The notes under the pieces were generated by a model that worked only from the letters and a program-made list of their open reading frames with translations, did not search any database and was not told the DNA's origin. 64,000 bases of DNA. Source: a virus. Location: the IMG/VR virus record IMGVR_UViG_3300020469_000010. One strand, given 5' to 3'. Positions 4,673 to 5,778 of the stretch are shown here, piece after piece. How positions within the stretch are numbered: position 1 is the first letter of the stretch; every line of letters begins with the position of its first letter. The translations under genes were made by a program, and so were the position numbers.

Positions 4673-4833
4673 CTGAAGATTGGAAAGAGGCAACTAATAG
4701 AGTTATTGCCAACAACCTAATTGATAATGTTGGACAACTTCTAAATGCTAAAAGTGTTAGGCATTTTTATTGTTCCGATAAAACCACAACACATAAAAAA
4801 ATTGTTATAGAATATGATAACAAACCAAAATGA
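4669..4833 (+). CDS. Hypothetical protein (54 aa, not in ORF track)
   Basis: MTEDWKEATNRVIANN...KKIVIEYDNKPK*; ATGA overlap with upstream gene, fills the gap. Confidence 0.6.
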   Translation: MTEDWKEATNRVIANNLIDNVGQLLNAKSVRHFYCSDKTTTHKKIVIEYDNKPK

Positions 4834-4846
4834 CAAAAAAGAATTC

Positions 4847-5014
4847 ATGACTGACAAGGAAAAGTGGAATAGAGGACTGGATTTATTCATTGAAAGTGTG
4901 CATAAACCAGATTCTAAATTGAGAGGTTGTGCTCACAATCAGGAATGCTACAATGAATTGATGTGGGTTCGTGAAAATGTTCTTAAGTATCTTGATACAT
5001 TAAGACATTATTAA
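4847..5014 (+). CDS. Hypothetical cyanophage protein
   Basis: MTDKEKWNRGLDLFIESV...CAHNQECYNELM. Confidence 0.6.
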   Translation: MTDKEKWNRGLDLFIESVHKPDSKLRGCAHNQECYNELMWVRENVLKYLDTLRHY

Positions 5015-5016
5015 AA

Positions 5017-5032
5017 TGTATTGCGTTATACA
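5017..5032. promoter_or_regulatory. Putative NtcA binding site
   Basis: TGTA-ttgcgtta-TACA = GTA-N8-TAC with A/T flanks, just upstream of a -35 box. Confidence 0.55.
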
Positions 5033-5039
5033 AAACTTC

Positions 5040-5068
5040 TTGACTATATAATCTACAAGTGCTACAAT
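5040..5068 (+). promoter_or_regulatory. Sigma70-type promoter
   Basis: TTGACT-17-TACAAT immediately before the aptamer region. Confidence 0.7.
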
Positions 5069-5070
5069 GC

Positions 5071-5134
5071 ACTTACGTTCATCCCTAAGTTGCCTTTGGC
5101 GACCAAGTGGGACGCAAGTAAGTCGTAGGAACGG
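5071..5134 (+). ncRNA. Glutamine-II (Downstream-peptide)-type riboswitch aptamer 1
   Basis: CGTTCATCCC...GGGACGCAA...GGAACGG core; pseudoknot ACTTAC/GTAAGT; upstream of a YRG-motif peptide. Confidence 0.7.
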
Positions 5135-5317
5135 AGCGTTCATCCCATGCATGAAATTTTGTTATTAACAACATTATCTTGCTCTGATGCTGGAGTTTTA
5201 ATGCAAAAGATTAGAGCAGATAAAAATCTTGATAGAAATATTAAGATTGAATTGGTGCAAACATTACGATATTCAGTTCCTGAATGTCAATGGGACGCAA
5301 ACGACTGAAGGAACGGG
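5121..5317 (+). ncRNA. Glutamine-II-type aptamer 2 with ORF-containing P2 loop
   Basis: Second CGTTCATCCC (5137-5146) ... GGGACGCAA-ACGACT-GAAGGAACGGG (5292-5317); pseudoknot AGTCG/CGACT. Confidence 0.6.
5147..5308 (+). CDS. Small protein (53 aa) nested in aptamer 2
   Basis: MHEILLLTTLSCSDAGVLMQKIRADKNLDRNIKIELVQTLRYSVPECQWDAND*; GGAG RBS at 5133-5136. Confidence 0.6.
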   Translation: MHEILLLTTLSCSDAGVLMQKIRADKNLDRNIKIELVQTLRYSVPECQWDAND

Positions 5318-5376
5318 AAAACGGATCCTCGGAAACGAGAGAAGGTTCAATTTCACCCAACTTCAGGAGTAAGACA

Positions 5377-5541
5377 ATGAACACACTACAAATCATTAAG
5401 AATCAGATTCAGAAAGCAGCACGTCTTCATGACGCACAAATCTCTCACACCTCATATCGTGGTGTTAAGTATGAGTGCAAGCATGGAGGTAAAGAAGTTC
5501 ATGGAACTTTCTGCTATCGTGGGCATTCTTACAAAAAATGA
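5377..5541 (+). CDS. DUF4278-like 'downstream peptide'
   Basis: MNTLQIIK...SYRGVKY...CYRGHSY (two YRG motifs); AGGAG RBS. Confidence 0.75.
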   Translation: MNTLQIIKNQIQKAARLHDAQISHTSYRGVKYECKHGGKEVHGTFCYRGHSYKK

Positions 5542-5552
5542 TTTAACAATCA

Positions 5553-5591
5553 AGGGATCTGCTTGACAGGTCCTTTTTTTACGCTTATAAT
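5553..5591 (+). terminator. Terminator hairpin overlapping a sigma70 promoter
   Basis: AGGGATCTG/CAGGTCCTT + T-run; TTGACA(5563)-17-TATAAT(5586) embedded. Confidence 0.65.
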
Positions 5592-5613: not shown

Positions 5614-5778
5614 ATGGACAAAGAAAGACTAAAACTGATAATTGCAAACTTAGAGTTGATTCTGGATAGTTTAAAGTCTGAAGTTCTTTCAGATCCTGAT
5701 GCATATCTGCAAAATTATTCCGAAATTACTGACTATGATGAGGTCTTTATTGAAGATGATGATGGATATCAGGACTAA
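5614..5778 (+). CDS. Hypothetical cyanophage protein
   Basis: MDKERLKLII...YDEVFIEDDDGYQD. Confidence 0.65.
   Translation: MDKERLKLIIANLELILDSLKSEVLSDPDAYLQNYSEITDYDEVFIEDDDGYQD

Follow-up and report, generated by a model that had tools for sequence, protein, structure and literature searches.

A probable glutamine riboswitch of two nested aptamer cores, one of them split by a small gene, in a T4-like cyanophage

Two described classes of glutamine-sensing RNA are closest to the element examined here. In the type 1 glutamine riboswitch (RF01739, glnA; Weinberg 2010, PMC2864571; Synechocystis gifB (IF17) leader, PMC6212724), the conserved blocks CGUUCA, ACG(C/G)AAGUA and GAAGGAACG form a three-way junction with a loop E at the base of P3, and the element stands before a DUF4278 (IF17-like) gene. 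The Glutamine-II class (Downstream-peptide motif, RF01704) shares this ligand-core sequence, is found ahead of short YRG/DUF4278 peptides in marine picocyanobacteria and folds through an H-type pseudoknot in which a 3' hairpin carries GGAACG in its loop. Here we describe a leader at positions 5076 to 5316 of a 64,000-nucleotide (nt) stretch of viral DNA (IMG/VR record IMGVR_UViG_3300020469_000010), hereafter called the window, in which the glutamine-aptamer core is present twice, the second copy being interrupted by a complete 53-codon open reading frame (ORF). The window represents a T4-like cyanomyovirus without a close isolate, the best long match being S-SCSM1 at ~80% identity. All coordinates refer to the window, and all features described lie on its plus strand. 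The leader is likely to be a type 1 glutamine riboswitch of composite build, with one aptamer core nested in the other and P3 common to both. It resembles type 1 in the conserved core blocks, the proposed three-way junction and the position before a DUF4278-like gene. It differs in that P3 is an inter-copy helix around a second, permuted core instead of a small hairpin, that one P2 loop (both in some relatives) is occupied by an entire gene whose start codon falls within the stem, that the window falls below the family threshold, and that the element is phage-borne.

Two domains for one ligand within one leader are also found in tandem riboswitches, such as those for glycine and the glutamine doublets and triplets (Sherlock 2022, PMC9481103). 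The glutamine tandems are listed in the latter paper as independent and "pseudo-cooperative," each unit with a platform of its own, whereas the present leader has a shared helix, one core inside the other and a single platform. In having physically coupled domains that share one expression platform it is closer to the tandem glycine riboswitch. The features of an independent tandem were not seen, in that the loop-E halves and P3 strands are split between the copies, the copies are 3 to 5 nt apart, and only a single masking helix and a single ribosome site downstream are present. Coding sequences in peripheral loops of functional RNAs are known from group I and II introns (homing-endonuclease and maturase genes), transfer-messenger RNA and SgrS/SgrT, and in leader-peptide attenuators (trp, erm) a regulatory structure farther downstream can be refolded when a short ORF is translated. 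In contrast, the host RNA here is a predicted metabolite sensor, the start and stop codons lie inside its helices, and the ORF encodes a conserved folded protein and not a sensing leader peptide. Riboswitches are regarded as rare in phages; against that view, this one leader type occurs in ~412 cyanophage records (matching 5109 to 5545) and hundreds of viral contigs. T4-like cyanophages with glutamine riboswitches have received brief mention (PMC9602691, PMC9964418); in one survey, cyanophage genomes yielded only two glutamine aptamers (PMC5473149), and in another the set included two riboswitch-bearing phages (PMC9004378). Neither a gene inside an aptamer nor cores sharing P3 were seen in the titles, abstracts and selected passages of papers that name the glutamine riboswitch together with cyanophage, or that name it from 2022 onward.

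A first-pass annotation of the window, made from its letters alone, had proposed two aptamer cores, and both were found exactly where it placed them. Copy 1 is compact (5076 to 5133) and consists of CGTTCA at 5076, the 5' P2 strand TCCC at 5082 to 5085, GGGACGCAAGTAAGTCG at 5109 to 5125 and GGAACG at 5128 to 5133. Copy 2 is split by 141 nt into a 5' half, CGTTCATCCCATG, at 5137 to 5149 and a 3' half, ATGGGACGCAAACGACTGAAGGAACGG, at 5290 to 5316. A set of 242 loci with the two-copy junction, labelled below with L and a number where one has to be named, was collected from six annotated phages and four pattern scans of IMG/VR. Among the 219 complete second copies, the spacing from CGUUC to the 3' half was bimodal, either 18 to 35 nt (49 loci) or 144 to 205 nt (170 loci, the split layout of the window), with no intermediates. 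Isolates with the layout include S-SM2, Syn33, Syn30 and S-SCSM1. The same dichotomy was observed for copy 1 in 237 relatives, with 180 compact and 57 long forms, 54 of the latter carrying an ORF of 65 to 79 codons. In natural compact forms such as L109, a small hairpin links the same halves, so that the separated parts in the window represent one element. After in silico deletion of 5151 to 5287, a profile of 27 natural compact doublets matched the window from end to end (58.2 bits, E 3e-17, a sequence profile only), and the same profile on the unspliced window gave two partial matches. At one locus (L129:6502-6861), three aptamer units stand in a row: a stand-alone compact unit (RF01739, 35.1 bits), one with a 66-codon ORF, and then another compact one.

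Rfam models were applied to the window, as the first-pass annotation had suggested, and to its relatives, with a mixed outcome. A scan of the window at gathering threshold reported a tRNA only; copy 1 alone scored 25.8 bits with RF01739 (gathering 35), and the window scored 19.4 bits with Glutamine-II (gathering 33); it was the ORF-deleted window that was recovered, by the compact-doublet profile. The natural compact relatives exceeded the RF01739 threshold, at 46.4, 40.2, 39.4 and 36.9 bits, only when aligned across both copies. These alignments run from the first CGUUC to the last GGAACG, with the inter-copy helix taken as P3 and the remainder as its "loop." The earlier label "glutamine-II type" was therefore not retained, given the score of the window and the absence of the defining pseudoknot, the hairpin columns around GGAACG being unpaired; the inner core does share with Glutamine-II the lack of a loop E. 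By homology to RF01739, the RNA quite probably binds glutamine. The low Rfam scores of the window would also suit an alternative in which there is no metabolite sensor at all, the conserved blocks being a protein- or ribosome-dependent attenuator or a coding constraint (W-D-A-N-D-stop) and the aptamer likeness superficial. This is very improbable: compact relatives without the ORF retain the same blocks and pass RF01739, the blocks are letter for letter those of the family's conserved core (CGUUCA, ACGCAAGUA, GAAGGAACG), and the element precedes a DUF4278-like gene, like known glutamine riboswitches (PMC6212724).

In the proposed fold, the outer core would be a three-way junction. Its P1 would pair strand a, CGUUC (5076 to 5080), with strand g, GAACG (5311 to 5315), the two ends of the Rfam alignments; the alternative partner of strand a is 5129 to 5133. 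P2 would occupy 5082 to 5112, with UCCC/GGGA closing an extended hairpin, GUUGCC-UUU-GGCGAC (-11.8 kcal/mol), and P3 would join strand c, AGUCG (5121 to 5125), to strand c', CGACU (5302 to 5306), the last base of which, U5306, also opens the nested stop codon. The outer joining strand J2/3, CGCAAGUA (5113 to 5120), fits the RF01739 consensus aCGGAAGUA and is invariant in relatives; its AGUA (5117 to 5120) would form loop E together with GAA (5307 to 5309). The inner core would be circularly permuted and lie at the far end of the shared P3. Its P1 would be the hairpin GAACG-GAG-CGUUC (strands d and e, 5129 to 5141), with a 3-nt loop (the linker was always 3 to 5 nt in relatives). Its P2 would pair UCCCAU (5143 to 5148), which holds the A and U of the nested start codon, with AUGGGA (5290 to 5295), which overlaps the codons Q-W-D, and its J2/3 would be CGCAAA (5296 to 5301; natural variants CGCACA and CGCAAA), without a loop-E half. 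The inner P2 would thus enclose the gene, with AUG in the stem, GGAG at the inner P1 loop, and UGA over P3 and loop E.

Both pairs of P1 strands, CGUUC/GAACG, were present and invariant in 150/150 sequences of the covariation alignment. In both copies, P2 is closed by a U-A pair directly after CGUUCA and followed by ACG(C/G)A, and the stems covary, the inner one across its 141 nt. The two halves of loop E flank a covarying P3, yet they stem from different copies, and P3 encloses the second core, with no small loop. AGUA adjoins AGUCG on its 5' side, and GAA adjoins CGACU on its 3' side. Each copy thus supplies one half of loop E, and the simplest fold is the nested one. By nearest-neighbor energies at five loci, the nested fold was better by 5.7 to 8.4 kcal/mol than one in which the copies fold side by side, and it was the minimum free energy (MFE) structure of the ORF-deleted window, at -34.6 kcal/mol.

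The side-by-side arrangement is the one drawn in the first-pass annotation: two glutamine-II-type aptamers, each with its own P1 (5076 to 5080 with 5129 to 5133 and 5137 to 5141 with 5311 to 5315), and two competing pseudoknots, ACUUAC/GUAAGU and AGUCG/CGACU. Each copy does contain a CGUUC...GGAACG pair, copy 1 is closed locally in the ligand-free MFE structure of the full sequence, a 5-nt strand in a kissing helix is sterically possible, and glutamine doublets are listed as independent tandem riboswitches in PMC9481103. However, full complementarity of ACUUAC and GUAAGU was limited to 4 of 167 distinct relatives; GUAAGU is fixed while its supposed partner varies, and ACTTA belongs to a conserved hairpin at 5057 to 5074. 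The second pairing, between AGUCG and CGACU of different copies, was upheld by covariation, not as a competing pseudoknot but as the shared P3 flanked by the loop-E halves. The split of loop E further means that neither copy alone is a complete type 1 core. Together with the Glutamine-II score, the missing 3' hairpin, the passage of the RF01739 threshold only across both copies and the unfavorable energies, this makes side-by-side folding quite unlikely, and the nested architecture is very likely.

Covariation was assessed on an alignment of 150 sequences. Over the whole proposed structure, 96.4% of cells were paired, compared with 30 to 53% in slid controls, and 0 of 500 shuffles reached the observed values. 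P3 was paired in 99.5% of cells, with G-C, A-U and U-A all seen at two positions, and the long-range inner P2 in 96.5%. The closing pair of the outer P2 was U-A in 120 sequences, A-U in 20 and G-C in 2, with C-G, U-A and A-U at the next positions. The complementarity of TCCCAT and ATGGGA, already noted in the first-pass annotation, likewise varies in step: the fourth pair of the inner P2 was C-G in 93 sequences, U-A in 36 and U-G in 7, and other loci have longer matches (e.g., CCUCAU/AUGAGG). The conservation expected across cyanophages was thus found both for the nested ORF and for the long-range pairings. P3 was also scanned by varying the copy-1 strand in the search and reading off its partner in copy 2. 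AGUCG occurred with CGACU at about 107 loci, AGUCA with UGACU at about 69 (three exceptions), AAUCG with CGAUU at 26 (no exception), AUUCG with CGAAU and AGUCU with AGACU at 3 each, and AGACU with AGUCU at 1. No matches were obtained for C-to-D variants at position 4, and three hits of the position-3 scan (L246 to L248) were discarded as unrelated chance matches. On a tree of the leader plus the downstream gene, all 7 of 7 independent contrasts in P3 were compensatory.

Several observations weigh against the nested double core. After relatedness is considered, the covariation events are few, amounting to 3 to 8 independent contrasts per pair. Owing to the lack of variation in the four P1 strands, covariation is uninformative as to whether P1 pairs in the nested or the side-by-side manner. 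In the ligand-free MFE structure calculated for the full sequence, strand a is joined to the first GAACG; such local closure of copy 1 may correspond to the OFF state. The window lies below every Rfam gathering score. A covariance model built from the 27 compact doublets recovered the 5' part but took a wrong, closer stretch of the ORF (5196 to 5220, 30.6 bits) for the 3' half, the true partner being 243 nt away and beyond the hit length of the model. Finally, a rare variant (L063:792-1249, L052 and L068) carries AGCCGACU instead of the inter-copy strands in both copies, with J strands that are not complementary. Copies of this kind may each form a local 2-bp mini-P3 (AG-CCGA-CU), the loop-E halves still being split between them. 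The stretch picked by the covariance model, AUGCAAAAGAUUAGAGCAGA, loosely resembles an aptamer 3' half, probably by chance. More generally, the leader type is hidden from covariance-model scans because the gene splits the sensor beyond their reach.

The nested ORF (5147 to 5308, phrog_504) is a real gene. It starts with ATG at 5147, ends with the codons W-D-A-N-D and TGA at 5306 to 5308, and encodes two invariant cysteines, C12 and C47. Sequence and coding evidence bore out the earlier claim that P2 of the second core encloses a whole 53-codon ORF, which begins within the stem and terminates within the 3' half of the aptamer. All 170 long inserts in complete second copies were open, with an ATG start and 48 to 67 codons. 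The nested ORFs of both copies form one BLASTP family (203 distinct sequences among 220), in which variability by codon position followed the order 3 > 1 > 2. The ratio of nonsynonymous to synonymous polymorphism (pN/pS) in frame was 0.46 to 0.69 for the family of the window ORF and 0.27 to 0.74 for the copy-1 ORF, compared with 0.82 to 1.46 off frame. The two cysteines were invariant across 73 diverse members. Nested proteins were assigned to the PHROG families phrog_504, 6471 and 13397, without annotated function. A profile search with the family returned 350 relatives, all hypothetical proteins, and the few with a source name were from cyanophages; a search with the single nested protein sequence returned one match only, and Pfam gave no match for the nested ORF or its neighbors. 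An AlphaFold2 model was a confident two-helix hairpin (predicted local distance difference test score, pLDDT, 83), for which Foldseek against PDB returned nothing below E 4. The top profile match, P0002 (E 6e-26), is a metagenomic protein of 131 amino acids, about twice the usual length, and may therefore be a fusion or read-through of two units.

The gene found in the P2 loop of copy 1 in some relatives (phrog_6471, 65 to 79 codons; e.g., L004, S-SCSM2R 288-775) is homologous to the copy-2 gene. Its stops fall in the P2 3' strand or in the conserved GUAAGU. In that P2 3' strand all three stop codons occur, each with a matching 5' strand (UCUUAUG/CAUAAGA, UCCUAUG/CAUAGGA and UCUCAUG/CAUGAGA).

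Such distribution over two loops raises the possibility that the ORF is a passenger of the nested double riboswitch, a small gene in an insertion-tolerant loop comparable to homing-endonuclease genes in intron loops, and that the overlaps of its start and stop with the aptamer merely reflect genome compaction. The 49 of 219 relatives without an ORF in copy 2 speak for this, as do the homologous ORFs in either P2 loop, the presence/absence changes on the leader-plus-gene tree (at least 8 in copy 2 and 23 in copy 1) and the freely varying P2 loops of compact forms. The placement of the ORF argues otherwise. The nested start keeps a constant position within the stem: in 167 of 170 ORF-bearing loci it follows the C of CGUUCA by 10 or 11 nt. 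Stops in copy 2 are confined to the aptamer 3' half, being UGA or UAA inside CU(G/A)AAG, at +10, in 160 of the 170, and those in copy 1 are confined as described above. No ORF with its own ribosome site was found deeper in the loop. G5133 and the GAG linker make up a Shine-Dalgarno-like GGAG 10 nt 5' of the nested AUG, and where the search left the linker free, GAG was present in 30 of 41 ORF-bearing and 5 of 23 compact loci (p 9e-5, uncorrected for relatedness). The identity of the nested stop codon also covaries with the downstream masking strand. A mere passenger is consequently unlikely. Within the ORF, UCCUGAA (5279 to 5285) was considered as an anti-Shine-Dalgarno strand against UUCAGGA and rejected, as relatives vary there as codons (P-E/D/H-C) without compensation.

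The expression platform had been overlooked by the first-pass annotation. The switch strand CUGAAG (5305 to 5310) is made up of the two final P3 bases, the loop-E half GAA and a G, and it holds the nested stop UGA (5306 to 5308). It is complementary to an anti-switch strand, CUUCAG (5361 to 5366), which overlaps the Shine-Dalgarno sequence AGGAG (5365 to 5369) of the downstream gene. In the 150 sequences this masking helix was 99% paired; the middle pair was G-C in 70, A-U in 52 and G-U in 28, with zero mismatches, and UAA nested stops were found only together with CUUUAG. Of 8 independent contrasts on the leader-plus-gene tree, 6 were in the same direction and none in the opposite one, and the helix was present in ligand-free MFE folds. 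The six bases CUGAAG therefore have three alternative states, being part of the sensor fold, of the masking helix, or covered by a terminating ribosome. The nested start codon lies in the sensor helices, and its GGAG probably does as well. With start and stop both inside sensor helices, nested translation and sensor folding exclude each other sterically, as the first-pass annotation had surmised. Moreover, with the stop in the switch strand and the start in P2, sensing, nested translation and unmasking of the downstream ribosome site would compete for the same few bases.

When glutamine is bound, the nested fold would retain CUGAAG, leaving the downstream ribosome site free (ON) and the nested start locked in P2 (OFF). 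Without glutamine, CUGAAG would mask the downstream site and the nested gene would be translatable. A ribosome ending the nested gene would cover CUGAAG and so transiently block both the sensor fold and the masking helix. The ON direction is suggested by analogy with the gifB leader, for which translational ON logic has been described (PMC6212724); in type 1 riboswitches, too, the aptamer 3' region beside P1 can mask the ribosome site, so that ligand should turn translation on. Such reciprocal control is plausible, at slightly less than an even chance. It is weakened by the consideration that a ribosome in the act of termination would free the downstream site as well, blurring a simple reciprocal switch. 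More tentatively, the leader could be a device that takes three states in response to glutamine and to the ribosome on the nested gene, and that sets the ratio of the two-cysteine helical protein to the IF17-like peptide during infection, with obligatorily cooperative ligand sites. If so, it would be the first riboswitch with the start and stop codons of a regulated gene in its sensor helices, the gene in turn disrupting the sensor.

The leader offers a natural example of a sensor built of two helix-sharing cores, and with a gene inside a sensor stem, detection of the metabolite and translation would involve the same bases. The leader also suggests that nitrogen status controls two uncharacterized small phage proteins in viruses that are among the most abundant in the ocean. 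The second of these proteins is encoded at 5377 to 5541, where the first-pass annotation had correctly placed a DUF4278-like YRG peptide: it has 54 amino acids and two YRG motifs, and it matched phrog_545 at E 4e-32 and PF14105 at E 0.002 (18.9 bits, below the cut-off of 25.3). It resembles the host glutamine-synthetase inactivating factor. Between the sensor and this gene lies an optional spacer hairpin (5323 to 5348), CUCG-GAAA-CGAG (5328 to 5339) with a possible GGAUC/GGUUC extension. Its stem covaries in relatives (CUGC/GCAG, CAGC/GCUG, CACC/GGUG), and many short leaders have no spacer hairpin.

The sensor appears to belong to a self-contained phage transcription unit of ~500 nt, a likely assignment given a promoter at 5040 to 5068 and a terminator at 5555 to 5580. 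The promoter is sigma-70-like (TTGACT, 17-nt spacer, TACAAT; 10/12 matches, with TG ahead of the -10), its predicted start is a few bases 5' of the first CGUUCA, and relatives also show a TTGACT...TATAAT arrangement upstream of the aptamer. A palindrome, AAGTGC-TACAAT-GCACTT (5057 to 5074), is centered on the -10 hexamer and includes the ACTTA assigned to a pseudoknot in the first-pass annotation. In relatives this palindrome (6 to 8 bp) lies 0 to 5 nt upstream of the first CGUUCA, and a stem of at least 6 bp was present in 163 of 195 distinct upstream sequences, compared with 26 of 195 when shuffled. The stems vary strongly among phages (AGGTCTA/TAGACCT, TGTGTTA/TAACACA, GGGAC/GTCCT and others), and the element covaries. 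Its interpretation as an NtcA box (GTA-N8-TAC) was ruled out by a half-site spacing that ranges from 3 to 10 nt across relatives. A T4-late-like TATAAATA or CTAAATA overlaps the -35 in 77 of the 195 upstream sequences, and a late transcript could hence start with the -10 hairpin.

Contigs from marine RNA libraries of three studies matched 4815 to 5543 without mismatch, which indicates presence only, with no information on starts, strand or level and with DNA carry-over possible. One such contig begins at 5080, and two, from one study, end at 5538 to 5543. Other contigs in the same runs have the conserved aptamer halves joined to different ORFs, and they accordingly come from related phages. 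When 185,579 species genomes were searched for the exact copy-1 J-P1 sequence, just six contigs contained it, all with the same phage-type leader. These contigs (L249 to L254), which carry the nested gene, are filed under a Synechococcus metagenome-assembled genome (MAG; 194 kb), a Verrucomicrobiales MAG, a Euryarchaeota MAG and a Nonlabens isolate. The placement of several of the six in bins of unrelated taxa suggests mis-binned phage DNA, and the contigs probably derive from cyanophages whose DNA entered the bins or assemblies of other organisms.

The intrinsic terminator of the unit (5555 to 5580) has a 7-bp stem, GGAUCUG/CAGGUCC, followed by U7, with a folding energy of -11.9 kcal/mol. It overlaps the promoter (TTGACA-17-TATAAT, 5563 to 5591, 12/12 matches) of the next small gene (5614 to 5778), and the -35 TTGACA of that promoter sits in the terminator loop.

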